DNA of 64,000 nt, from NCBI GenBank assembly GCA_942491275.1, contig CALNZI010000004.1:3305-67304 (forward strand), read 5' to 3'. Of the stretch, positions 6,165 to 59,243 are shown piece after piece (positions within the stretch are counted from its first letter, which is position 1; each line of letters starts with the position of its first letter). The stretch is from Minisyncoccota bacterium. GTDB lineage: Bacteria; Patescibacteriota; Minisyncoccia; Phycocordibacterales; UBA9973. The notes under the pieces were generated by a model. The model was not told the DNA's origin and did no database searches. It was given only the letters and a program-made list of their open reading frames with translations. A program made the translations under genes and the position numbers.

Positions 6165-8560
6165 GTGAAGGAAAAAATAAAACCTAAAAAAGAAAAATTA
6201 GTTCTTCTTGATGCCCATGCAATTATTCATCGGGCTTACCATGCTTTGCCAGAATTTATGAATTCTAAAGGAGAACCAACTGGAGCGATTTATGGAATAG
6301 CTACCATGCTTTTTAAGATTATTACAGAATTAAAACCTGATTATATTATTGCTTGTTATGACTTACCTAAAAAAACTTTTAGACATGAAGCCTATAGTGA
6401 TTATAAAGCTGGGAGAGCTAAGTCCGACGATGCTCTTGTTTCTCAATTAATAAAATCTAGAGATTTCTTTAAAGCTCTATCTATTAAAATATACGAAGCC
6501 GAAGGCTTTGAGGCCGATGATCTTCTTGGAACTATTGCTAAACAAGTTACAAAAAAGAAGAAAAATATTGATGTGGTTATCGCTTCTGGAGATATGGATA
6601 CTCTTCAATTGGTTGATGATAAAAATGTTTTTGTTTATACCCTGAAGAAAGGAATTAATGACACAATTTTATATGATGAAAAGGCCGTAGTAGACCGTTT
6701 TAAATTTAAACCAGAGTATTTACCGGATTATAAAGGGTTGAGAGGGGACCCTTCCGATAATATTATTGGTATTAAGGGAATTGGAGAAAAAACAGCTACT
6801 ATTTTAATTTCAGAGTTTGGTTCATTGGAAAAGATGTATAAGGTTCTTAAAAAAGACCCGGAGTATATTTCTAAACTAGGAATTACTCCTCGCGTTTTAA
6901 ATCTTTTGAAAGAAGGAGAGGAAGAAGCTTTATTTTCTAAAACCCTAGCAACGATTCGTCGCGACGTACCCATTACTTTCAAAATTCCTAAAGATGTTTG
7001 GGAAAAAGAAGTTAAAGTTGAAGAGGTGGCGGACTTTTTTAAAGAGATGGAGTTTAGAAGTTTACAGGGAAGATTTTTAAATTTGTTTAAAAAAGAAGAA
7101 GGTAACCATTTAGACAATTTTACAGAAGAAAAAGAAGTTGAATATAAAGAGGAAGACAAAATTAAAATAACCAAAGCCCAGATTGCCTATTGGCTTTTGA
7201 ATTCAGAAAAAACCAATCCAGATTTAGAGGAAGTCGTTGATTATCAAGGAAGTAGTAATTTAGACGAATCATTGGAATTATTAGAAAAAGAGGTTGAAAA
7301 ACAAGGCTTAAATTACGTTTACAAAGATATCGAAATTCCAATTATTCCCATAATTAAAAAAATGGAAGAAAATGGTATTTTAGTGGATGCTAAATATTTA
7401 AATAAATTATCAAAGAAATATCACACACTTTTATCTAAACTAGAAAAAGACATTTGGGAATTAACAGAAAGTGAATTCAATATAAATTCACCGAAACAAT
7501 TAAGCGAGATTCTTTTGAAAGATTACAGCTTTCATCCAAAGGGATTAAAAAAAATCCAGGAGGTACACTTTCCACTCGAGAAAGTGAATTAGAAAAATTA
7601 AAAGACATACATCCAGTTATTGGAAAAATTTTAGAATATCGTGAGTTACAAAAACTGCTTTCAACTTACATTGATACAATTCCAAATGCTATTCATGAGG
7701 ATGGTCGTTTGCATGCAAATTTTATTCAAACAGGCACAACCACAGGACGCTTCTCTTCAAATAATCCTAATTTACAAAATATTCCAACCAAAACAGAAAA
7801 AGGGAGAAATATTAGGACTGCTTTTGTCGCGCCAGAAGGAAGTGTTTTGGTTTCTTTCGATTATTCACAAATAGAACTACGAGTAGCAGCTCTAATGTGT
7901 CAAGATTCATTTTTTATAGAAGTTTTTAACAAAAGGGAGGACGTTCATTCGGCTGTGGCCATGAAAGTTTTTGGTGTTAAAGAAGAAGAAGTGACTCCGG
8001 ATATGCGTCGTCGTGCCAAGGTTATTAACTTTGGTATTTTATACGGCATGGGCGTGAATGCTTTGAAAGATAATTTAGGCACCGACAGGAAAGAAGCTCA
8101 AATTTTTTATGATAATTATTTTGCTCAGTTTCCAACCATCGCTGCTTATTTGGAATCCATTAAGATTTTTGCTAAAGAGAAAGGATATACTTTAACTCTT
8201 TTTGGAAGGAAAAGATATTTTCCTGGAATTAAATCACCACTTCCTTTTCTTAGAGCAATGGCGGAAAGAATGGCTATTAATGCTCCCATTCAGGGGACAG
8301 CTGCTGATATAATAAAGATTAGCATGAAAAAAGTTGATGAAGAACTAAGGAACGCTAAAATACAAGATGAAGTAAAACTTGTTTTACAGGTCCACGATGA
8401 GTTAATTTTTGAAATAAAAAAAGATAGGGTTGATCAGGCTGTGGAAATTATCAAAAAAGCTATGAAAAATGTTATGCCTATTGAGTTTTTGAATGACCTT
8501 GAGTCAGTTCCTTTTGAAGTTTCCTTTGGAATTGGTAAAAATTGGGGAGAGTTAAAATAG
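6165..8560 (+). CDS. polA: DNA polymerase I (5'-3' exonuclease plus polymerase domains), reading frame interrupted by one -1 shift at an A8 run
   Basis: ORF 6165..7592 has the 5'-nuclease motifs (LLDAHAIIHRAYHAL, GIKGIGEKTA). After the a8 run at 7547..7554 the -1 frame reads KNPGGTLSTRESELEKLKDIHPVIGKILEYRELQKLLSTYID...HANFIQTGTTTGRFSSNNPNLQNIP and continues to 8560 (YSQIELRV, QVHDEL). Confidence 0.9.
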
Positions 8561-11998: not shown

Positions 11999-12619
11999 TT
12001 AAAACTTAACCTCTTTCCCATCTCCAATAAATTTATAATCACCATCTTTAACAAGAAAACCTTGCCCATCTCTTAAAAATTTAACAGGGTATTCTAAATC
12101 CTTTGTTTTTTCTTTGTATTCTTCTTTTTTATCATCTGTGTAATGAGCTTGTATAACAAAAGGTACCAAATCTAATCCCCTCAACATCTCTTTTGAAGGA
12201 TTTTCAGGAATACCAGAACTTGATTTTATACTAATTCCCATAATTGCAGCACCAGCACTGGTACCAATATATACTTTTCCTTGTTCCAGAAGTTCTATTA
12301 GAAGTTTATCAAAACCATTTTCTTTCATTGCGTTTAATAAGTAAAAAGTACTACCACCATCTATATGAATTATATTTTTATCCTTAAAAAATTCTTCTAA
12401 TTGTTCTTTATTTTTTCCTTCAATATCTATTTCTTCAAAATTATAACCATTTTCTCTTATTTTATCTTTAACATTTTCCATAAACAATTTAGTCTTTTCA
12501 TCTCTTCCTTTTACTGCAGTATTAACATAACCAATTCTCATATCCTCCTTTGAAATACCAGTTAAGTCATAACCATATTTCAAAAGAAAACTTAAATCTG
12601 ACGCGAGTATGAGTTTCAT
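11999..12619 (-). CDS. peptidase E-like (S51 family) dipeptidase
   Basis: HIDGGSTFYLLNAM...VYIGTSAGAAIMG, the typical S51 GGNTF / SAGA pattern. Confidence 0.75.
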   Translation of the reverse strand: MKLILASDLSFLLKYGYDLTGISKEDMRIGYVNTAVKGRDEKTKLFMENVKDKIRENGYNFEEIDIEGKNKEQLEEFFKDKNIIHIDGGSTFYLLNAMKENGFDKLLIELLEQGKVYIGTSAGAAIMGISIKSSSGIPENPSKEMLRGLDLVPFVIQAHYTDDKKEEYKEKTKDLEYPVKFLRDGQGFLVKDGDYKFIGDGKEVKF

Positions 12620-12620
12620 A

Positions 12621-13253
12621 TTATTTTCCCCAATTATCTAATAATTCTTTTGAATCTATTGTCTTTCCATACAAATAAGGGAAGACTCTATTTTTGAGAT
12701 CTTTAGAAATTCTTTGGTTTTCTTCACTATCGGTTGCCTCTATTAAGTCTTTTAACATTACAAAGTTAAAACCTAAAGAAAAACCAACAACTACAGTAGA
12801 AAGAACACACCCTCCCGTGAAAACACCTGTCATTATTAAGTACTGAATACCTTTCTTTTTTAATGTTTCTTCTAATTCAGTTTGAGAAAAAGCATCATAG
12901 GTGTTTTTTGTAATAATAATATCTCCTTCTTTGGGTTTTATTTGATAAAATTCTTCATCAAAACCAGTTTTATCTTCTGAGTAATAAACAACATCAGGGT
13001 CAGTGTATAATTCATTCATATTGTCTCGTAGGTGTTCTTTGTTCCAAGGAGAGAGATTCACAAATACAACTTCTCCTTGAACTGTTTTTCTATAATCTTC
13101 AATAAAATCTTTTAGTTTGGGAACCATTTCTCTTATTTTTGAAAACCTAATATTCCATTCAGGAGTTTCACATTTTTCATGAACACAGCTGTTAACCACA
13201 TCTATAATTATTAGAGCTGTGTTATCTTTGTTCATTTTTGGGTATATTTTCAT
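12621..13253 (-). CDS. isochorismatase-family cysteine hydrolase
   Basis: TALIIIDVVNSC...ITKNTYDAF...MTGVFTGGCVLSTV (catalytic Cys context). Confidence 0.8.
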   Translation of the reverse strand: MKIYPKMNKDNTALIIIDVVNSCVHEKCETPEWNIRFSKIREMVPKLKDFIEDYRKTVQGEVVFVNLSPWNKEHLRDNMNELYTDPDVVYYSEDKTGFDEEFYQIKPKEGDIIITKNTYDAFSQTELEETLKKKGIQYLIMTGVFTGGCVLSTVVVGFSLGFNFVMLKDLIEATDSEENQRISKDLKNRVFPYLYGKTIDSKELLDNWGK

Positions 13254-13254
13254 A

Positions 13255-13845
13255 TTATTTTATGTGTTCATGCACTATTTTTTTTAATTCAGACTCATCG
13301 GTGAATACAAAGGCTTTAATCTTGACTTCCTCACTAGCTTTTACATTTTCTTCTTTATCATCAAAATATAAACATTCTTCTGGGTTTAAGTTGTTTTCAG
13401 ATAAAACTAATTTCCAGGCTTCTAGATTAGGTTTAATAAAACCTGTTTGCCAAGAAAAATAAGCTTTATCTACAACTTTTTGCATCCAAGGATAATGTCC
13501 ATAATGCTCTGCTCTTTCTTTAAAATTGTTTGAAAGCATAAATATTTTAATTCCTTTTTCTTTTAATTCTTTTGAAAAAGATATCATTTCTTCCGAAGGA
13601 TATTCTTCTTTAAACCAATAGTTCCAAAACTTTTCTTCATTTAAATTTAAGTTCCATTTTTTAAATAAAGGCTCCCAATATGTAAAAGCTGGTTTTGAAT
13701 TAGGTTTTCTAACTTCTCCCATTATTTTAAATAACTCAGGTAAAAAAACAGAAGTTGGTATATTAAAATCTTCCTCGAATCTATCTCCTAGTTTTCTGCT
13801 TTTTATAAATATTCCATTTAAATCAAAAATTATTGCTTTTATCAT
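13255..13845 (-). CDS. HAD-superfamily hydrolase
   Basis: IIFDLNGIF (DxN motif I), LSNN and YFDDKEENV (motif IV). Confidence 0.8.
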   Translation of the reverse strand: MIKAIIFDLNGIFIKSRKLGDRFEEDFNIPTSVFLPELFKIMGEVRKPNSKPAFTYWEPLFKKWNLNLNEEKFWNYWFKEEYPSEEMISFSKELKEKGIKIFMLSNNFKERAEHYGHYPWMQKVVDKAYFSWQTGFIKPNLEAWKLVLSENNLNPEECLYFDDKEENVKASEEVKIKAFVFTDESELKKIVHEHIK

Positions 13846-14807
13846 ATTATTCTTATTTTATTAAAATTTTTACCAACTAAACCTTCAATTGAAATATCTT
13901 CAAAAATAAACTCTGATTTTTCTAATTGAGAAGGGGAAAGGACATATTCAATAAATTCATCATCTTTCTTTTTTAACACACCAACTCCTGGCCAAAACTT
14001 CGCTACAGATGTTTTAGTGGTTCCCACCGGAATACAATTATCCATTTTTATACAAAAAACTTTTATCTTTTCTTTTGTATTGTTGTATGCACGTCTTTTT
14101 GGAAGTGTATAATATGCTTGATGTAGTAATTCAACTTTTTCTCTCCAAAGAGGGTCTTTGTCTTGACCAGGTTTTAACCGAACATTTAATTCAACCATTC
14201 CTCTGGTGTGATCATTTAAAACTGGTAATCCACCAAGTTGATTTTCCATTTCCGAAATCTTTTCTTTTAAGGTTTCTTCAAATTCCTCAGTAGTATAATG
14301 TGAACTAACTGGAGTTAGGCTAAATTTAATGTTTTTTGGTAAATAATTTTTAAGAAAATCAAAAATCATATTTAGACTTTTTGCATAATCTTCCGTATCT
14401 TTTTTAGGGATATTATTTATTCTCTCAACTATTACATCATCAGAACTAAAATCAAATAATATCCCAGGTTTGTAAACTTCTAAAATTGGTTTAAGCCATT
14501 TCACGTAATACATTAAAGTAAATAACTCCGCCCAATCTGCCTCAGGAGTTTCTTCTAGTCGCCAAAGCTTATATGCCCCAAAAGGGAAAATTAATTTAAT
14601 TGGTAAGTTGTTTTTTATACTATTCTCAATTACCCCATGAATTTGTGGTATATATTCTAAATTTACGCTAAATTTTCTAAACTTTTTAGACATAAGTTTT
14701 TTAAAAATATAATCTGTTAGGTCTTTATCAGAATTAAAAGAGACCTCTGTTTTCTCAGTAGATCTTAATTTTTCTAATTTTTTCTCAATAAATTCTTGTG
14801 CTTTCAT
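13842..14807 (-). CDS. hypothetical protein (weak motif-level resemblance to DIT1/PvcA-type enzymes)
   Basis: FPFGAYK...PEADWAEL...YKPGILFDFSSDD loosely recalls the FP.KS...PD.AE...Y.PG...SDG pattern. Very tentative. The start codon lies 2 nt after the tRNA-Cys 3' end. Confidence 0.5.
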   Translation of the reverse strand: MKAQEFIEKKLEKLRSTEKTEVSFNSDKDLTDYIFKKLMSKKFRKFSVNLEYIPQIHGVIENSIKNNLPIKLIFPFGAYKLWRLEETPEADWAELFTLMYYVKWLKPILEVYKPGILFDFSSDDVIVERINNIPKKDTEDYAKSLNMIFDFLKNYLPKNIKFSLTPVSSHYTTEEFEETLKEKISEMENQLGGLPVLNDHTRGMVELNVRLKPGQDKDPLWREKVELLHQAYYTLPKRRAYNNTKEKIKVFCIKMDNCIPVGTTKTSVAKFWPGVGVLKKKDDEFIEYVLSPSQLEKSEFIFEDISIEGLVGKNFNKIRII

Positions 14808-14809
14808 AG

Positions 14810-14880
14810 AGATGTGGGTAGGAATTGAACCTACGATGTTTACTTTGCAAGTAAATGCCTTACCACTTGGCTACCACATC
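14810..14880 (-). tRNA. tRNA-Cys (GCA)
   Basis: Minus-sense sequence GATGTGGTAGCCAAGTGGTAAGGCATTTACTTGCAAAGTAAACATCGTAGGTTCAATTCCTACCCACATCT. Cloverleaf with anticodon loop CTTGCAAAG. No CCA encoded. Confidence 0.9.
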
Positions 14881-14929
14881 AAATTTATTATATCAGAAAT
14901 ATGCAATCGAACGTACTGTCTGTTTGGTA

Positions 14930-17428: not shown

Positions 17429-17465
17429 AAGAAATTATGTTATAATAGTTCCACAACTAAATATT

Positions 17466-17656
17466 AATTATCAAGAGTATGGAGATCCTCCTTCGTATAA
17501 ACTACGGACGGAGAGCGAGCACTGGCTCGATGACCCATCAGCAACCCTCATTTATACGAGTAGGTGCTAAATCCAGCCCGATAAAGTGAAAACTTTATTC
17601 AGGAAAGATAAATGGAAGTAGTTTATCTTTCCCCATTATGGGGATTTTTTATTTTC
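17466..17656 (+). promoter_or_regulatory. SAM-I (S-box) riboswitch with intrinsic terminator
   Basis: aTTATCAAGAG...GGAGAGcgagcACTGGCTCGATGAcCCatCAGCAACC...AGGTGCTAAATCCAGC...GAAAGATAAat matches the S-box core, with an extra hairpin inserted in P2. Terminator ccccattatgggg+T-run at 17631..17656. tgttataat -10 box at 17438..17446. Confidence 0.85.
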
Positions 17657-38575: not shown

Positions 38576-38624
38576 ATAACCCCGTAGTAGAATTTTGTCT
38601 AAAATTTCACTACAGGGTATAATA
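38576..38624 (+). promoter_or_regulatory. conserved ~49-nt palindrome-plus-TATAAT element (copy A) upstream of pilM/N
   Basis: ataaCCCCGTAGTAGAATTTTgtctAAAATTTCACTACAGGGTATAATa, near-identical to 57493..57541. TATAAT at 38618..38623 lies 9 nt before the ATG. Confidence 0.6.
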
Positions 38625-41203: not shown

Positions 41204-41240
41204 ATATGTTATATGCGCGGTTAGTTGTCTTGGTAGGTCC
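41204..41240 (+). repeat. degenerate duplicate of the tRNA-Val promoter plus 5' half
   Basis: atatgttatatGCGCGGTTAGttgtcTTGGTAGgtcc versus the real gene atatgttttatatGCGCGGTTAGctcagTTGGTAGagc, 76 nt downstream. Confidence 0.6.
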
Positions 41241-41290
41241 TTTAACTTAGAAACAAAATAATCATTATTAGTACCAAATATGTTTTATAT

Positions 41291-41363
41291 GCGCGGTTAG
41301 CTCAGTTGGTAGAGCAACTCATTTACACTGAGAAGGTCGGGGGTTCAAATCCCTCACCGCGCA
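41291..41363 (+). tRNA. tRNA-Val (UAC)
   Basis: GCGCGGTTAGCTCAGTTGGTAGAGCAACTCATTTACACTGAGAAGGTCGGGGGTTCAAATCCCTCACCGCGCA. Anticodon loop TTTACAC. Confidence 0.9.
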
Positions 41364-41379
41364 CAACGCCAAGAATATT

Positions 41380-41451
41380 GCCCCTGTAGTTAAATGGATA
41401 TAACTGCGGACTTCTAAGCCGTTATTCGAGGTTCGATTCCTCGCGGGGGCA
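41380..41451 (+). tRNA. tRNA-Arg (UCU)
   Basis: GCCCCTGTAGTTAAATGGATATAACTGCGGACTTCTAAGCCGTTATTCGAGGTTCGATTCCTCGCGGGGGCA. Anticodon loop CTTCTAA. Ends 1 nt before the ATG at 41453. Confidence 0.85.
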
Positions 41452-41452
41452 C

Positions 41453-42229
41453 ATGAAAATAAAAATTCTATTTGAAGATAAAGACCTATTGGTCATAAAT
41501 AAACCCGCAGGTGTTTCTGTCCATTCGGATGGAAAAAGCAAGGAAAAAACTATTGCTGACTGGGTTTTAGAAAATTATCCAAAAACTAAAAAAGTTGGAG
41601 AACCTTTTGATTTGGAGGTTAAGGGAGGGGAAAATATAAAAATTTATCGTCCAGGAATTGTCCATCGCTTAGATAGAGAAACTTCCGGGGTTTTGATTAT
41701 TGCTAAAAATCAGAAAACTTTCGAGTTTGTGAAAAAACAATTTGCTGATCGTGTAGTTCAAAAAGTTTATCATTCTTTTGTCTATGGATCAGTTTCAGAT
41801 CCCCAAGCCTCTCTGGCTACAAATAAAAGGGGAGTGATAAAAGCAGCTATGGGACGTTCTCCCAATGATATTAGAATGTGGACAGCTGGACGAGGAGCAC
41901 GTGAACCACTACGGGAAGCTACAACAGAATATATTATTTTAGAAAAATTTAAATTAAAAAACGGAAAAGAATTTTCTTATCTGGAAATTTATCCAAAAAC
42001 TGGGAGAACTCACCAGATTAGAGTTCATATGAGATATATTAATCATCCGGTGGTGTCTGATAATCTTTATGGAGGATCAAATAAACCTGCTCTTGGAATG
42101 AAGCGCCTAGCTCTTCATGCTAAGATTATTACTTTTAAATTACCAAGCGGTCAGCCGAAAACAGTGGAAGCTCCGTTTCCAAAAGACTTTCAAGAAGTTA
42201 AAGATAAATATTTAAAAATAGATAAATAG
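41453..42229 (+). CDS. RluA/RluD-family pseudouridine synthase (lacks an S4 domain)
   Basis: [28 protein letters not shown] and GRTHQIRVH. Confidence 0.9.
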
Positions 42230-42281
42230 AGGTAAATTAAGGGGATTGCTTAATATACATATATATGATAAAGTACACGCC

Positions 42282-42737
42282 ATGGAATTGACCAAGGAAA
42301 AATTCACTCCGGTGGACACAGAAGAACGAAAAAGTCTTGATTTTAAGGCGGGTGATACTGTTTGTGTTTGGAGTAAAATTCAAGAAAAGGGTAAAACTAG
42401 ACTTCAGGCATTTGAAGGGTTAGTTCTTTCTCGTAAGCATGGGACAGAGCCAGGAGCAACATTTACAGTTAGAAAAGTTGCCAGTGGTGTTGGAGTTGAG
42501 CGTATATTCCCTTTATATTCTTTTAATATTGGGAAAATTGAAGTTTTGAAAAAATCAAAGACTCGTCGAAATAAACTTTACTATATTAGAACAAAAGCAG
42601 TTAAAGAAGTTAGAAAGAGATTGAAGAGTATTACTTTGGTTAAAGAAAAAACAATTAAAATTTCAGCAGAAGAGGAAGTGCCCACGGTTGAAAAAGAAGT
42701 AGAAGTAAAAACAGAAGAAGTTACAAAATCAGAATAA
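42282..42737 (+). CDS. rplS: 50S ribosomal protein L19 with acidic/lysine-rich C-terminal extension
   Basis: [35 protein letters not shown]...[20 protein letters not shown]. The ATG at 42282 is preferred over 42246. Confidence 0.9.
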
Positions 42738-42764
42738 AAAAGCTCCACTGGTGGAGCTTTTTTT
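42735..42764 (+). terminator. rho-independent terminator after rplS
   Basis: aaaaaagctcca-ctgg-tggagcttttttt. Confidence 0.8.
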
Positions 42765-42803
42765 GTTTGGAATAAGATCAGTAATTGAGTATACTTTTAA
42801 TAT

Positions 42804-42885
42804 GCCCGGGTGGTGAAATTGGTAGACACGCTAGTATGAGGTACTAGTGCCGCAAGGTTTGGAGGTTCAAATCCTCTCCCGGGCA
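42804..42885 (+). tRNA. tRNA-Leu (GAG), class II
   Basis: GCCCGGGTGGTGAAATTGGTAGACACGCTAGTATGAGGTACTAGTGCCGCAAGGTTTGGAGGTTCAAATCCTCTCCCGGGCA. Ends 1 nt before the ATG at 42887. Confidence 0.85.
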
Positions 42886-42886
42886 C

Positions 42887-43453
42887 ATGGATATATTTTA
42901 TATTTTAGAATGGTTTTTAGTAATTATTTCTTTCATCACTTTTGGAGTGCTTTCTTTGTGGATTTTTAGTAGTTTTAATAAAAAGACTCGCTTTACTCAA
43001 ACTCCTAGTTCTGTTTTTAAGTATATTTCTAAAAGTTTAGAAATTAAAGAGGGTAGTGCGGTTTATCATTTAGGTTGTGGTGACGGGCGAGTATTGTTTA
43101 ATTTAGCAAAGCAAAAGCCTAAAGCGGAATTTATAGGAGTTGAAGATAATAAGTTTTTTTTAGGACTAGCTTTTTTACATAATTGGTGGAATAAAATAAA
43201 AAAGAAGGAAAAAATTGAAATTATAAATAGAGATTTTTTTAATCAAGATTTATCTAAAGCAACACACATCTTTGTTTATTTGTATCCTAACTTTATGGAT
43301 GATCTGTTATCAAAATTTGATAAAGAATTAAGCCCAGGAACTCGTTTAGTTTCTTTAAATTTTCATTTTACTTCGAAGCAACCAATTGCTGAAATCAGTC
43401 TCCCTAAAAAAAGTTATCAACGTAATCATCGAATTTACGTTTATGAATTTTAA
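42887..43453 (+). CDS. class I SAM-dependent methyltransferase with N-terminal TM helix
   Basis: VYHLGCGDGRVLFNLA (motif I) and GVEDN. N-terminal TM helix WFLVIISFITFGVLSLWIF. Confidence 0.7.
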   Translation: MDIFYILEWFLVIISFITFGVLSLWIFSSFNKKTRFTQTPSSVFKYISKSLEIKEGSAVYHLGCGDGRVLFNLAKQKPKAEFIGVEDNKFFLGLAFLHNWWNKIKKKEKIEIINRDFFNQDLSKATHIFVYLYPNFMDDLLSKFDKELSPGTRLVSLNFHFTSKQPIAEISLPKKSYQRNHRIYVYEF

Positions 43454-43475: not shown

Positions 43476-45776
43476 ATGATTACAGAAGATTTAACAAACT
43501 ATATTAAGAGCCAAATTGAACAAAATATTTCTAAAGAGGTGATTGTTTCAAAACTAGCTCAAGTTGGATGGAAATTGGAAGATATTGAAGAAGCTTTGGC
43601 GGAGGTGATTCAACCAATTAAAACAGAAGTTAAATCAGATCTAATTTCTGAAACACAGAAGGAAGTAGAAGAAAAAAGAGAAGAATATAAAGTAGACCCT
43701 TATCACGAACCCATTGATTTGGGGTCTGATCCTTTGGCCACTAATCTGGAGATTGAAAAAAACAAGTCCAATAAAGTTGAATCGCTTAGCCCTTCCACTG
43801 AAATGCTTGTAGAAGAAAAAAAAGAAGAAACATCAAAAATCTGGACTCCCACTACAATAAAACCAATAATAGAAGATCTTCCTCCTCTAGAAAATAAAGA
43901 AGTTGGGGATATTCCCAAAGAGGATACAACCGTTAAGTCTGTGAGCACTAGAACCATAGAGACTTTTCAGCTTGAATTAAATAAACCAAAAGAAGATAAA
44001 AAACCAGATCCAGTTAAACTTCCGGTGGAAGAAATTAAAATTGAAGGGATTCAAGAAGAAATTGAAAAAATTCCAAACCTAATTCCTAAAATGACATCTC
44101 AGGATGTAAAAAAAGAAGATCCCTCTTGGGATATTCCAACTCAACAGAGTCCTGAACCTAAATCAGCAGTAAAGCCAGAATTAAAGTCAGAGCCAGTTAT
44201 TAAGAAAATAGAAGATAATATTGATCCTTCTCAGATTAAACAGAATAGAATTTCTGATATGACCAGTAGTCTTTCTAAGAAAGCAATGATCTCATCGTAT
44301 TCTCAGGATTATATGTCTGCCAATAAACTAAAAGAAGAAGTTTCTAAGAGGAAAAAAAGTATTCTCTCAGGTTGGTTGATTTGGGTGGGAACATTTATTG
44401 TTTTAGTTGGGATAGTTCTTATGTTTACTGAAGGTTTCATAAAAATACCTAAGTTTGATTTATCATTTGTAAAAAAAGACCCAAAGATTGTTTTATTAAA
44501 TAGTACAAATAATCTTTCTTTACTTAAATCTTATAAGGTGGGAACTAAAGTGAGTATATCTTTTCCTTCTTTTTCAAACATAACATCAAGCTTAATGGAA
44601 GGAGAAAATCTTTCTTTCCAAGATAAAGACTCCTTTTCTTTCAAGGCTGATGGGATTGTTGATAAGAAAAATTCAACCTCAATCTTTTTTGATTATGATA
44701 TTGTTTTGAATAGTTCCATAATAGAAGATGAAATTAAAACAAATTTTAAGTATGACGGAAGAAGCTCTTTTGTGAACGTTCCAGATCTGAGTAAAAGTCT
44801 AGGGGAGAAATCTCCTTTAGTTGGATTAGTTTCAATTCCAAATGAACAACTCGACGAAATTAACCTTTTCCTTCCCGCTTCTATACAAGAGAAAGTTGGA
44901 AAAATAGAATTATCAAAGTTATTACCTAATAGTTTTTCAGATATTACCGGTAGTTATTTTAGCTTGTTATTTAAAAATTTTATAGGAGGGGTTGAAATGA
45001 TAAAGAAAGGGGAACAGGATATTGGTGGAATTCTTACGTATAACTATAGCTTGAGTGTTGATCGTGTATTTTTGAAAAAGTTTTTAAGCGATATCTTAAA
45101 TGTTGTACTACCGAATCTTTCTAATGAAGAAAAATTAGGCATGGATCAAATTTTAGGATCTGCTTCAGTGGATTCATTTGAAGTTTGGATAGGGAAGAAA
45201 GATGGAAATCTTTATAAATACAAATTTAAGTTGGCTGTCCCTCTTTCGAAAGTTATTGGACTAGACGACAAGACCATGGCGAATAATTCAGTTGTCTTGG
45301 ATTGGGAAACTAAATATTTTGACCTGGATTTACCTAACAGTGTGACAATTCCAGTCCAAACAATTGGGATGGATGATTTTGTAAATAATATTAATGACAC
45401 TAAAATTAAGAATTTAATATCATCCTTTTCTGTCTCAGCTAATGTGATGAAAAACGCTCTAGGTAATTACGGGAAGAAATCAAATTCAAAGGGAAGTTGT
45501 GTAGAACCTACCTCTGGATCATTATTTTCTCCACTTGGCCACACAAAAGGAGCTTCTACTGTTGTTGGAACCATTGCTAGTATTATGAATGAAATTACTA
45601 GCCAAACACAAGGTGTTTCAGCTTGTTATTCAACTTCTAAGAATTGGGCTATAGCTTCTCCTTTAATTAGTGATCCAGATTCTTATTTCTGTAGTGACAG
45701 TGAAGGGAATTCAGTTATTTTAAATGAATCTTTAACAGGAACAGTTTGTCCTGAAATTATTACAGAACAAGAGTAG
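43476..45776 (+). CDS. large hypothetical bitopic membrane protein (766 aa)
   Basis: Acidic/Lys-rich N-terminal ~290 aa, one TM helix (WLIWVGTFIVLVGIVLMF), and a ~450-aa C-terminal extracytoplasmic region ending in a Cys-containing domain. Confidence 0.6.
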   Translation: MITEDLTNYIKSQIEQNISKEVIVSKLAQVGWKLEDIEEALAEVIQPIKTEVKSDLISETQKEVEEKREEYKVDPYHEPIDLGSDPLATNLEIEKNKSNKVESLSPSTEMLVEEKKEETSKIWTPTTIKPIIEDLPPLENKEVGDIPKEDTTVKSVSTRTIETFQLELNKPKEDKKPDPVKLPVEEIKIEGIQEEIEKIPNLIPKMTSQDVKKEDPSWDIPTQQSPEPKSAVKPELKSEPVIKKIEDNIDPSQIKQNRISDMTSSLSKKAMISSYSQDYMSANKLKEEVSKRKKSILSGWLIWVGTFIVLVGIVLMFTEGFIKIPKFDLSFVKKDPKIVLLNSTNNLSLLKSYKVGTKVSISFPSFSNITSSLMEGENLSFQDKDSFSFKADGIVDKKNSTSIFFDYDIVLNSSIIEDEIKTNFKYDGRSSFVNVPDLSKSLGEKSPLVGLVSIPNEQLDEINLFLPASIQEKVGKIELSKLLPNSFSDITGSYFSLLFKNFIGGVEMIKKGEQDIGGILTYNYSLSVDRVFLKKFLSDILNVVLPNLSNEEKLGMDQILGSASVDSFEVWIGKKDGNLYKYKFKLAVPLSKVIGLDDKTMANNSVVLDWETKYFDLDLPNSVTIPVQTIGMDDFVNNINDTKIKNLISSFSVSANVMKNALGNYGKKSNSKGSCVEPTSGSLFSPLGHTKGASTVVGTIASIMNEITSQTQGVSACYSTSKNWAIASPLISDPDSYFCSDSEGNSVILNESLTGTVCPEIITEQE

Positions 45777-57496: not shown

Positions 57497-57541
57497 CCCC
57501 GTAGTAGAATTTTATTAAAATTTCACTACAGGGTATAATAA
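57493..57541 (+). promoter_or_regulatory. conserved palindrome-plus-TATAAT element (copy B) upstream of paralog copy 6
   Basis: ataaCCCCGTAGTAGAATTTTattAAAATTTCACTACAGGGTATAATaa. Overlaps the copy-5 stop codon. TATAAT at 57534..57539 lies 6 nt before the ATG at 57546. Confidence 0.6.
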
Positions 57542-57545
57542 ATAC

Positions 57546-59243
57546 ATGAGTCCTGAAACTAAAAATTGTGTAAATTGTCAGAAAGATTTTATCATTGAAA
57601 CAGATGACTTCTCTTTTTACGAAAAAATCAAAGTTCCAGCACCTACTTGGTGTCCTGATTGTCGACAGCAACGTCGATATGCCTGGCGAAATGAGCGTAC
57701 TTTATATAGGCGAAATTGTGATTTATGTGAAAAAAGTACGGTTACTATTTATTCGCCCAATAAAGACTGTAAGGTTTATTGTTTGAATTGTTGGTGGGGA
57801 GATGGATGGGATCCTGCTTCTTACGGACGAGATTTTGATTTTAATCGACCATTTTTTGAGCAATATTATGAACTACAAAAAGAAGTTCCAAGAATGGCAC
57901 TTTTAAATAAAAGAGGAACAAATTCTGAATATACAAATCATTCAGCAGACAATAAGAATGTTTATTTATCCTATTGTTCTTTTGATGGAGAAGACATTCT
58001 TCACTCCACCTGGATAATGCAATCGAAAAGTTGCTTGGACTGTAGTTTTATAAATGGAGGAGGGGAGAAGTTGTATCAATGTATTGATTCTCGGAAGTCA
58101 TATCAATGTCAATTTGGTTTTTTTCTAAAGGATTGTGTGAACTGTTATTATTGTTACGACAGTCATGGGTGTACAGATTGTTTTATGTCTTCAAATTTAC
58201 GTAATAAAAGTTATGTATTTAAAAATGAGCAATATACTCGTGAAGGATATTTTGAGAAATTAAAGGAATATAATTTAAGCTCTTTTGAAGTTAGAGAGCA
58301 ATTGAAAAAAGATTTTCTTAATTTATTGAAGAATAATTCTACTCACAAACATTTTATGGGTGAACGTAATTTAAATTCAACAGGAGGGTCTATTTTTAAT
58401 AGTAAAAATTCATTGTTTTGTTTTGATTCTGAAGATCTTGAAGATGTAAAAAATGGATACGCAGTGTTAGGTGTAAAAAATTCGATGGATATTTATCACG
58501 TCGGAATAAAAACAGAATTAGTCTATGAAGACCATGGATGTACAGGAGTATATGATTGTCAGTTTTGCCATCTTTGTTACGATAATTCTCATTTAATGTA
58601 TTGCGACTCTTGTCAGAATAGTCAAAATCTTTTTGGTTGTATCTCTGTTAAAAAAGGAGAGTACATGATTTTTAATAAAAAATATACAAAAGAAGAATAT
58701 GTTGAGCTAAAAGAAAAGATCATTGAACATATGGAAAAAACAGGGGAGTATGGAGAATTTTTTTCACCAAGTATTTCTCCTGTTTCCTATAATGAAACTC
58801 AAGGAAATTATTATATGCCTTTAACAAAAGAAGAAGTTTTATCAAGAGGATGGTTATGGGAAGATCAGGTGCCGGGAACCTTCGGAAAGGAAACTGTTCA
58901 GCCAGAAGAAATTCCCGACATCATTGAAGAAGTAAAAGAAGATGTTTTGACTGCTATCTTTAAATGTACTGAATGTACAAAAAATTATAATATTGTACCC
59001 GATGAATTAACCTTCTATCAAAGAGAAAAAATACCAATACCTAGAAGGTGTCCCGACTGTCGCTATAAATGGCGTTTCGACCTTCGTTTGCCAAGGAGGC
59101 TTTGGTTAGGGGTCTGTAAATGTGATAAAAAAGGTCATTTTCATGAAGAAAAACCTTGTTCTGAGCAGTTTCAAACTAGTTACGAGCCAAATAGGCCAGA
59201 AATTGTATATTGTGAAAAATGTTACCTTCAAGAAATAGTCTAA
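57546..59243 (+). CDS. cysteine-rich paralog family, copy 6 (subfamily II)
   Basis: MSPETKNCVNCQKDFIIETDDFSFYEKIKVPAPTWCPDCR..., KDCVNCYYCYDSHGCTDCFMSSNLRNKSYVFKNEQYTREGY and ...YCEKCYLQEIV-stop. Confidence 0.85.
   Translation: MSPETKNCVNCQKDFIIETDDFSFYEKIKVPAPTWCPDCRQQRRYAWRNERTLYRRNCDLCEKSTVTIYSPNKDCKVYCLNCWWGDGWDPASYGRDFDFNRPFFEQYYELQKEVPRMALLNKRGTNSEYTNHSADNKNVYLSYCSFDGEDILHSTWIMQSKSCLDCSFINGGGEKLYQCIDSRKSYQCQFGFFLKDCVNCYYCYDSHGCTDCFMSSNLRNKSYVFKNEQYTREGYFEKLKEYNLSSFEVREQLKKDFLNLLKNNSTHKHFMGERNLNSTGGSIFNSKNSLFCFDSEDLEDVKNGYAVLGVKNSMDIYHVGIKTELVYEDHGCTGVYDCQFCHLCYDNSHLMYCDSCQNSQNLFGCISVKKGEYMIFNKKYTKEEYVELKEKIIEHMEKTGEYGEFFSPSISPVSYNETQGNYYMPLTKEEVLSRGWLWEDQVPGTFGKETVQPEEIPDIIEEVKEDVLTAIFKCTECTKNYNIVPDELTFYQREKIPIPRRCPDCRYKWRFDLRLPRRLWLGVCKCDKKGHFHEEKPCSEQFQTSYEPNRPEIVYCEKCYLQEIV

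Follow-up and report, generated by a model that had tools for sequence, protein, structure and literature searches.

Transfer RNA genes abutting start codons in a Paceibacteria genome, a candidate route to leaderless messages in a lineage without a Shine-Dalgarno signal

The DNA considered here is a 64,000-nt stretch of contig CALNZI010000004.1 (hereafter the window, i.e., the whole stretch that was analysed), in which three tRNA genes end 1 or 2 nt before the ATG of a protein-coding gene. The host is a Nomurabacteria/Paceibacteria bacterium within the Candidate Phyla Radiation (CPR), of the tiny-genome groundwater type, and the closest named relatives of its RluA protein are in Candidatus Nomurabacteria. 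The tRNA genes were called with ARAGORN and confirmed with the Rfam tRNA model (8/8 window tRNAs); the Rfam end is the discriminator base, and the ARAGORN ends fall 1 nt beyond it.

The first junction lies on the plus strand in a putative tRNA-Val/tRNA-Arg/rluA unit. Its first gene, tRNA-Val(UAC) (41291..41363; Rfam 71.4 bits; trailer CAA), is separated by 16 nt from tRNA-Arg(UCU) (41380..41451; 60.4 bits), which has a fully paired acceptor stem (7/7) and a discriminator A at 41451. A single base, C74 at 41452, stands between this discriminator and the ATG of a 258-aa RluA/RluD-family pseudouridine synthase gene (rluA, 41453..42229; Pfam PF00849, PseudoU_synth_2, E = 9e-27, domain from residue 11). 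The gene behind it, rplS, encodes ribosomal protein L19 (42282..42737, plus strand; PF01245, E = 1e-31) and offers a contrast, as it has an ordinary leaderless promoter with a -10 box at 42269..42274 (extended form TGaTAAAGT, plus strand), 7 nt before its ATG. The rluA-rplS unit is closed by an intrinsic-terminator hairpin, AAAAAAGCTCCAC-loop-GTGGAGCTTTTTT (42736..42763).

The second junction follows on the same strand. A promoter-like site, TTGGAA-17 nt-TATACT (42767..42795; a consensus match only), ends 8 nt upstream of tRNA-Leu(GAG) (42804..42885; 50.9 bits), whose discriminator A at 42885 and C74 at 42886 are followed immediately by the ATG of a 188-aa coding sequence (CDS; 42887..43453). 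Its product resembles a membrane-anchored S-adenosylmethionine (SAM) methyltransferase, being small, with a hydrophobic N-terminus and weak Pfam methyltransferase matches, and the gene behind it, at 43476, is preceded by a separate TGATATAAT whose distance to the ATG is 6 nt. The third junction lies on the minus strand, where tRNA-Cys(GCA) (14810..14880; 69.8 bits) has a discriminator U at 14810, then C74 and a U (14809-14808), and the ATG of a 321-aa open reading frame (ORF) without a Pfam match (13842..14807) lies 2 nt past the discriminator. This ORF heads four tightly coupled minus-strand genes, the others encoding a HAD hydrolase (13255-13845), an isochorismatase (12621-13253) and a peptidase S51 (11999-12619). 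An extended -10 (TGATATAAT; 14887..14895, minus strand, read from the sequence) ends 6 nt before G+1 of tRNA-Cys and is likely the promoter of the tRNA and its four genes; the hairpin that follows tRNA-Lys lies upstream of it.

A sequence-only reading of the window had proposed these three abutments, and they are borne out base by base: ...GGGGGCA-C-ATG for rluA, ...CCGGGCA-C-ATG for the methyltransferase-like gene and ...CCACATC-T-CT-ATG for the 321-aa ORF, with ARAGORN and Rfam each detecting all three tRNAs. Its statement that none of these tRNAs encodes CCA is likewise correct, the trailers of the eight window tRNAs being CTA, CAA, CAG, CAA, CAA, CAT, CAT and CCC (CCA in 0/8). Five window tRNAs directly precede an ORF on the same strand and three of the five abut it; other tRNA-to-ORF gaps in the window are 50, 162 and 239 nt. 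At the three junctions the space between tRNA and ATG is too small for a promoter or a terminator. The presence of a -10-like box closely upstream of tRNA-Leu and tRNA-Cys, together with the terminator ahead of the tRNA-Leu unit, gives a layout that would be consistent with cotranscription of each tRNA and the ORF behind it.

These junctions lie in a genome whose other genes show how its messages may begin. The comparison set comprises 69 loci from metagenome-assembled genomes of Nomurabacteria, Paceibacteria and Patescibacteria (L001-L069), obtained by a scan of one genome per species, and the control set comprises 11 Bacillaceae loci from the same scan. Counted at a match of at least 5/6 to TATAAT, -10 hexamers peak exactly 6 nt before the ATG, both in the window (10/54 ORFs) and in the relatives' loci (175/1064 ORFs), and 284 of these 1064 ORFs have one 5-8 nt before the ATG. 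No Shine-Dalgarno (SD) peak was found upstream of the ORFs of the window or of the 69 related loci; the Bacillaceae control has a strong SD peak at 6-10 nt and lacks the -10 peak. Correspondingly, the motif TGnTATAAT recurs 5-8 nt ahead of window ATGs, where SD sequences are nearly absent. A start-site census of 58 window ORFs places 24 behind a -10 at 5-9 nt, 15 at -4 to +10 nt from an upstream stop codon (typically TAAtATG), three against a tRNA and 16 in other contexts, several of the latter with doubtful TTG or GTG start calls. In line with the missing SD signal, published work finds the 16S rRNA of about half of Parcubacteria to be devoid of the anti-SD motif (PMC9297842). Since there is no SD signal and the -10 peak stands 6 nt before the ATG, gene expression in the lineage is, as read from these signals, mostly leaderless, and its machinery should therefore handle leaderless mRNAs. 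The leaderless promoter geometry that had been noted elsewhere in the window thus holds lineage-wide. In the literature searched, neither leaderless expression nor tRNA punctuation was found described for CPR/Patescibacteria, which is not proof that such a description does not exist.

The key comparison is with orthologues of the abutting genes. The rluA start was located in 68 loci, and since the N-terminus MK(I/L)KILFEDKN is conserved, the start codon is fixed. About 22 of these loci have a tRNA on the same strand that stops 1-9 nt short of the ATG, and no -10 there; L044 and L059 carry Val-UAC in this place, the others Arg-UCU. The remaining loci mostly show the tRNA-Val/Arg pair inverted, with TGnTAnnAT exactly 6 nt ahead of the same ATG (e.g., TGcTAATATgtcatt|ATG in L002), and in L020 a 23-nt spacer contains TGgTAAGTAtaaaat|ATG. 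The methyltransferase-like gene behaves in the same way: 35 orthologues share its N-terminus, and most of them read TAGTATAAT, 6 nt, ATG, several lying 30-57 nt past tRNA-Leu with the -10 within the spacer, and the spacer after tRNA-Leu is 1 nt in the window and in L016 and 8 nt in L036. The starts of both genes bear either an abutting tRNA or TGnTAnnAT 6 nt upstream, never both. Over all junctions, a -10-like hexamer (at least 4/6 matches, with A2 and T6) 5-8 nt from the ATG was found in 0/31 of those with 1-9-nt spacers, and a -10 match of at least 5/6 in 15/31 of those with spacers of 23-60 nt. As judged from these orthologues, the tRNA 3' end and the leaderless promoter are alternative ways to precede the same start codon. 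In a neighbour-joining tree of RluA the tRNA-abutting and promoter states are interspersed (a single gene at 50-70% identity, weakly resolved), which suggests that the states switched repeatedly, through recurrent inversion of a small tRNA-Val/tRNA-Arg cassette that is present in both orientations before rluA. A 15-nt exact repeat, TATATGCGCGGTTAG, occurs in the window at 41210-41224 and 41286-41300, the latter copy covering promoter-proximal bases and tRNA-Val up to its tenth nucleotide; the copy upstream of it runs on as a degenerate D-arm and resembles a tRNA-Val 5' fragment, which may be a scar of such an inversion.

The same orthologues bear on whether the ATGs are true starts. Were the starts mis-called, or the genes pseudogenes, the abutment would be coincidental, and start calls are in general uncertain, rluA itself having an in-frame TTG at codon 13. 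Each of the three ATGs is, however, the first start codon past an in-frame stop (ORFs of 258, 188 and 321 aa), the N-termini are conserved in 68, 35 and 3 orthologues (rluA, methyltransferase and 321-aa ORF, respectively), the -10 of promoter-bearing orthologues stands exactly 6 nt upstream of these same ATGs, and in RluA the PseudoU_synth_2 domain already begins at residue 11. A wrong start is therefore very improbable. Starts upstream, inside the tRNA, were also considered and rejected, since none is in frame: each ORF opens at the first start after a stop. For the 321-aa protein, a metagenome scan returned three loci, two of which (L081 and L082) have a tRNA-Cys junction, ...CCACATC-T-CC-ATG, the third being distant and without a tRNA. 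The tRNA before the orthologue in L081 (743-815; its counterpart in L082 is at 817-889) is called Ala(CGC) by ARAGORN; by acceptor stem and homology it is tRNA-Cys(GCA) with an odd anticodon loop, apparently with C at position 33.

A promoter within the tRNA gene could instead yield a primary ORF transcript that is leaderless or short-leadered. The T-arm does contain weakly -10-like hexamers about 17 nt before the ATG (TCAAAT in tRNA-Leu, TCAATT in tRNA-Cys), but the region that a leaderless promoter would have to occupy is a G+C-rich acceptor stem, the count of -10-like hexamers given above is 0/31, and a start in the T-loop would produce a structured, GC-rich leader of about 10 nt without SD, unlike any other gene here. 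We consider the chance of such internal promoters to be very slight; the sequence-only reading, which had raised them, had also stated that there is no room for a promoter or an SD sequence between tRNA and ATG, and this is upheld by the same count and by the missing SD peak of the lineage. An SD sequence hidden in the tRNA 3' end was rejected as well: acceptor-stem G-runs end 3 nt before the ATG and T-arm GGAGG/GAGG motifs lie about 19-22 nt away from it, in a lineage without an SD peak.

A survey of tRNA-end-to-ATG distances, a check that the earlier reading had called for, was made on 283 tRNAs from the window and the 69 CPR loci. The discriminator was placed by acceptor-stem pairing (7/7 pairs in 282), and the spacer was measured from the discriminator to the next ATG opening an ORF of at least 80 aa. 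An ATG follows 1-9 nt after the tRNA in 31/283 cases (about 11%), with spacers of 1 nt in 12, 2 nt in 10 and 3-5 nt in five; 24 junctions have spacers of at most 3 nt, longer spacers are distributed flatly (about 0.3-0.5 per nt), and none of the 283 has a spacer of 0 or less. Because the loci are syntenic, junctions were collapsed into types defined by tRNA species and downstream protein family, and the excess of short spacers persists: the minimum spacer is at most 4 nt in 9/81 distinct types, versus about 0.8 expected if distances were uniform over 400 nt. The nine are Arg-UCU and Val-UAC before rluA; Leu-GAG before the methyltransferase, before msrA and before another protein; His before two different proteins; Ser-UGA before one protein; and Cys before the 321-aa ORF. 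Six tRNA species and eight downstream protein families thus take part in tight junctions. Stop codons lie 0-12 nt from the tRNA 5' ends in 22 tRNAs of the relatives (e.g., TAG|G in L057), among them tRNA-Leu-GAG in L057, L022, L053, L028, L047, L049, L018 and others, and since stop codons abut tRNA 5' ends in this way, tRNAs punctuate on the upstream side too. In three loci the CDS-tRNA-CDS arrangement is tight on both sides, with 12 and 4 nt in L045, 7 and 17 nt in L051, and 6 and 13 nt in L060.

We favor as probable the explanation that excision of the tRNA creates a leaderless or near-leaderless mRNA with a 5' monophosphate (5'-P), the tRNA and the ORF being cotranscribed and the message translated SD-independently from its 5' end. 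The tRNA and the gene behind it would be transcribed together from a promoter closely upstream of the tRNA, and the downstream RNA would be released by the same endonucleolytic event by which the tRNA acquires its mature 3' end, a cut after the encoded C74 being more likely than one after the discriminator. The released mRNA would begin at the AUG or 1-2 nt before it and carry the monophosphate, and the ribosome would use the leaderless route that appears to serve roughly a quarter to nearly half of the lineage's genes. The tRNA 3' end would accordingly stand in for the -10 box located 6 nt before the ATG elsewhere.

The tightness of the junctions could also be due to compaction only, i.e., genome streamlining may pack tRNA and ORF together, with initiation proceeding internally and SD-independently as it does in operons, and with tRNA excision being incidental. 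In agreement with this, 15 window genes follow another CDS just as closely (-4 to +10 nt, without SD), no -10 is present in a few tRNA-ORF spacers of 13-21 nt, and 3-9-nt spacers exist beside those of 1-2 nt. However, coupling between two CDSs needs a terminating ribosome, and a tRNA delivers none; initiation at an AUG 1-2 nt behind a folded tRNA should be sterically blocked as long as the tRNA stays in place; and where the spacer has sufficient length it carries a -10 at the leaderless distance, from which it can be argued that the AUG needs a 5' end. Moreover, the 1-2-nt spacers mirror the leaders of 0-2 nt to which -10 gaps of 6-8 nt should give rise. Compaction without a role for excision is thus unlikely.

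Where the cut would fall is suggested by the base that follows the discriminator. Position 74 is C in 282/283 tRNA genes of the window and the relatives, against a background C frequency of about 15%. Position 75 is A in 194 and C in 60 (254/279 A or C) and G once, and position 76 is A in 194, giving a consensus C-[A/C]-A with CAA (123), CCA (56) and CAT (44) as the commonest trailers; CCA is absent from 227/283 genes, so that about 20% encode it. We know of no description of a near-invariant C74 in CPR. As 70% of the discriminators are A, overlaps and spacers of 0 could readily arise, yet in none of the 283 genes is C74 displaced by the ATG, and the 1-nt spacer is therefore best regarded as part of a conserved tRNA gene unit. 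This suggests that C74 is a processing determinant or that the cut falls after it.

The sequence-only reading had placed an RNase Z-type cut directly after the discriminator, leaving an mRNA that starts 1-2 nt before the AUG, and this part of it is now questionable. For RNase Z the Cs of CCA act as anti-determinants, the poorest substrates being those with C as the first trailer base, and in Bacillus subtilis CCA-less trailers are U/A-rich. The window tRNAs agree with a canonical RNase Z substrate in lacking CCA (8/8) and depart from it in having C74 in the trailer, so the near-invariant C74 is not what one would expect as the signature of canonical RNase Z. A precedent for another position exists in Propionibacterium acnes, which lacks tRNase Z and has many leaderless mRNAs: differential RNA sequencing mapped endonucleolytic cuts in its encoded CCA "always between the Cs", and repair by tRNA nucleotidyltransferase was proposed (PMC3848588). 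By analogy, a cut after C74 is tentatively preferred here to one after the discriminator. It would leave a leader of 0-1 nt, giving pAUG for the Arg-rluA and Leu-methyltransferase junctions and pU-AUG for the Cys junction, ends that agree with leaders of 0-2 nt, such as -10 gaps of 6-8 nt would produce.

The alternative to an endonucleolytic cut at the junction is that 3'-to-5' exonucleases such as PNPase mature the tRNA after a distal cut, so that each transcript would give either a tRNA, at the cost of the mRNA behind it, or a poorly translated chimera that still contains the tRNA, and the abutting genes would be low-expression passengers. Exonucleolytic maturation is the usual route for CCA-encoding tRNA genes, which make up the above fifth of the relatives' tRNA genes, and in L062, L066, L081 and L082 the CCA triplet shares its last base with the ATG, as CC-ATG. 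PNPase is among the few RNases kept in >90% of CPR genomes (PMC12641178), and no RNase Z turned up in the window or in the related loci (about 1 Mb). On the other side, the junction is conserved in many species for housekeeping genes (rluA, then rplS) and it replaces a good promoter, which is hard to square with sacrificed expression, and endonucleolytic C74/C75 cuts do occur in a bacterium without tRNase Z (PMC3848588). Such either/or processing therefore seems distinctly improbable.

Several points weigh against processing-derived leaderless messages. The search for the enzymes, whose presence the sequence-only reading had proposed to check, covered ORFs of at least 150 aa in the window and the 69 loci (about 1 Mb) with the motifs HxHxDH for RNase Z and GGxVRD for the CCA-adding enzyme, and it found neither gene; because the related loci are one syntenic neighborhood, this says nothing on absence from whole genomes. 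Likewise, no RNase or nucleotidyltransferase was present among the 39 window ORFs scanned with Pfam, and a pattern search for RNase P RNA core motifs gave no convincing match. As all loci come from one gene neighborhood and the RluA tree, built on a single gene, has weak resolution, any count of independent origins would be tentative. RNase J is a 5'-exonuclease that attacks 5'-monophosphate RNA. CPR genomes retain it (PMC12641178), and the processed mRNAs might therefore be short-lived. Further, AU-rich spacers of 13-21 nt occur at some junctions, and genes within operons are started without SD, so the ribosome can also start at non-5'-terminal sites and strict leaderlessness may not be required. 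Finally, the case for this organism and its relatives is built entirely on DNA sequence.

A broader and more tentative version extends the preferred explanation to a lineage-wide, two-sided tRNA punctuation in Paceibacteria that would be independent of that in mitochondria, marked by C74, with repeated inversion of the tRNA pair swapping modules. Here the cut after C74 would be non-canonical, the tRNA ending in -NC would be completed by the CCA-adding enzyme, and the mRNA would start exactly at 5'-pAUG and be translated as leaderless by ribosomes lacking the anti-SD, promoter-made and tRNA-made 5' ends being interchangeable modules. We regard this version as possible but doubtful. A related idea, that tRNAs of this lineage are as a general rule themselves leaderless and need no RNase P, was rejected, as no sharp peak of -10-to-tRNA-5'-end distance exists over 282 tRNAs. 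The tRNA-Cys of the window, whose TGATATAAT ends 6 nt before +1, has the geometry of the leaderless genes and may therefore be transcribed without a 5' leader.

The closest known parallel is the tRNA punctuation of animal mitochondrial DNA (mtDNA) described by Ojala, Montoya and Attardi, a likeness that the sequence-only reading had drawn and that is strengthened by the window spacers of 1, 1 and 2 nt and by the relatives' stop codons abutting tRNA 5' ends. In both systems tRNAs directly flank protein genes with 0-2-nt spacers, and it is predicted that here, as in mitochondria, leaderless mRNAs without SD receive their 5' end from tRNA 3' maturation. Mitochondria differ in producing two genome-length transcripts, whereas here, in a cellular bacterium, promoters and terminators are many and separate, and only about 11% of the tRNAs (31/283) punctuate. 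Furthermore, mtDNA often has a spacer of 0, as in the human mtDNA map, whereas here C74 is always retained and the minimum spacer is 1 nt.

Among bacteria, the E. coli thrU-tyrU-glyT-thrT-tufB operon combines tRNAs and a protein gene in one unit whose message is released by tRNA processing, and tufB keeps a leader of about 100 nt with an SD sequence. The present units would resemble tufB-type operons in that tRNAs and a translation-related gene share one unit, cotranscription being predicted here, and they differ in that the AUG lies 1-2 nt from the tRNA in a lineage without SD signal. The primary leaderless mRNAs of Actinobacteria and Deinococcus, with a -10 about 6-7 nt before the start, have the geometry that dominates this lineage and that orthologues of the abutting genes use; the three window genes differ in having no -10, and their 5' end would be a monophosphate rather than a triphosphate (5'-PPP). 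The C74 cut of P. acnes (PMC3848588) comes from another leaderless-rich bacterium and would explain an invariant C74 that the ATG never displaces, but it was mapped on full-CCA tRNAs without abutting ORFs, whereas the cut here is predicted. In other cases, too, an endonuclease and not a promoter sets the functional 5' end of a downstream RNA. MazF in E. coli makes leaderless mRNAs post-transcriptionally, with a 5'-OH and under stress, and the plant-mitochondrial t-elements and the tRNase Z-cut element before the Haloferax 5S rRNA are tRNA mimics, not working tRNAs. The window, in contrast, has genuine essential tRNAs in a constitutive arrangement.

Other features of the window are recorded here in their own right. 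DNA polymerase I is apparently interrupted (6165-8560): an ORF at 6165-7592, with the 5'-3' exonuclease and the start of the polymerase domain, stops at 7590, and the polymerase domain resumes in another frame from about 7574 to 8560, a pattern that a frameshift, a pseudogene or faulty assembly could explain. Two nearly identical copies of an element of about 44 nt, CCCCGTAGTAGAATTTT-n-AAAATTTCACTACAGGGTATAAT, lie at 38580-38623 and 57497-57539, each a palindrome over the -35 region of a leaderless promoter; one precedes a pilM-like gene (38633) and the other a gene at 57546, and the element is probably a shared operator. Behind a SAM riboswitch (17465-17614, to about 17800; Rfam 46.2 bits), which has an apparent terminator, there is only a very small hydrophobic ORF (about 33 aa) before the SpoU methylase gene's own leaderless promoter.

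If the processing explanation is true, the punctuation by which tRNAs create leaderless messages in mitochondria would also arise in a large, uncultured bacterial radiation whose members are abundant in groundwater and lake samples, the conditions for it being a lost SD mechanism and a compact genome. The invariant C74 would be the signature of a 3' tRNA-processing activity in CPR. The amounts of tRNA and mRNA produced would be expected to be stoichiometrically coupled in cases like rluA. Gene calling in CPR genomes would gain a rule that places starts immediately behind the C74 of a tRNA, at the stop codon of an upstream gene or 6 nt downstream of a -10.

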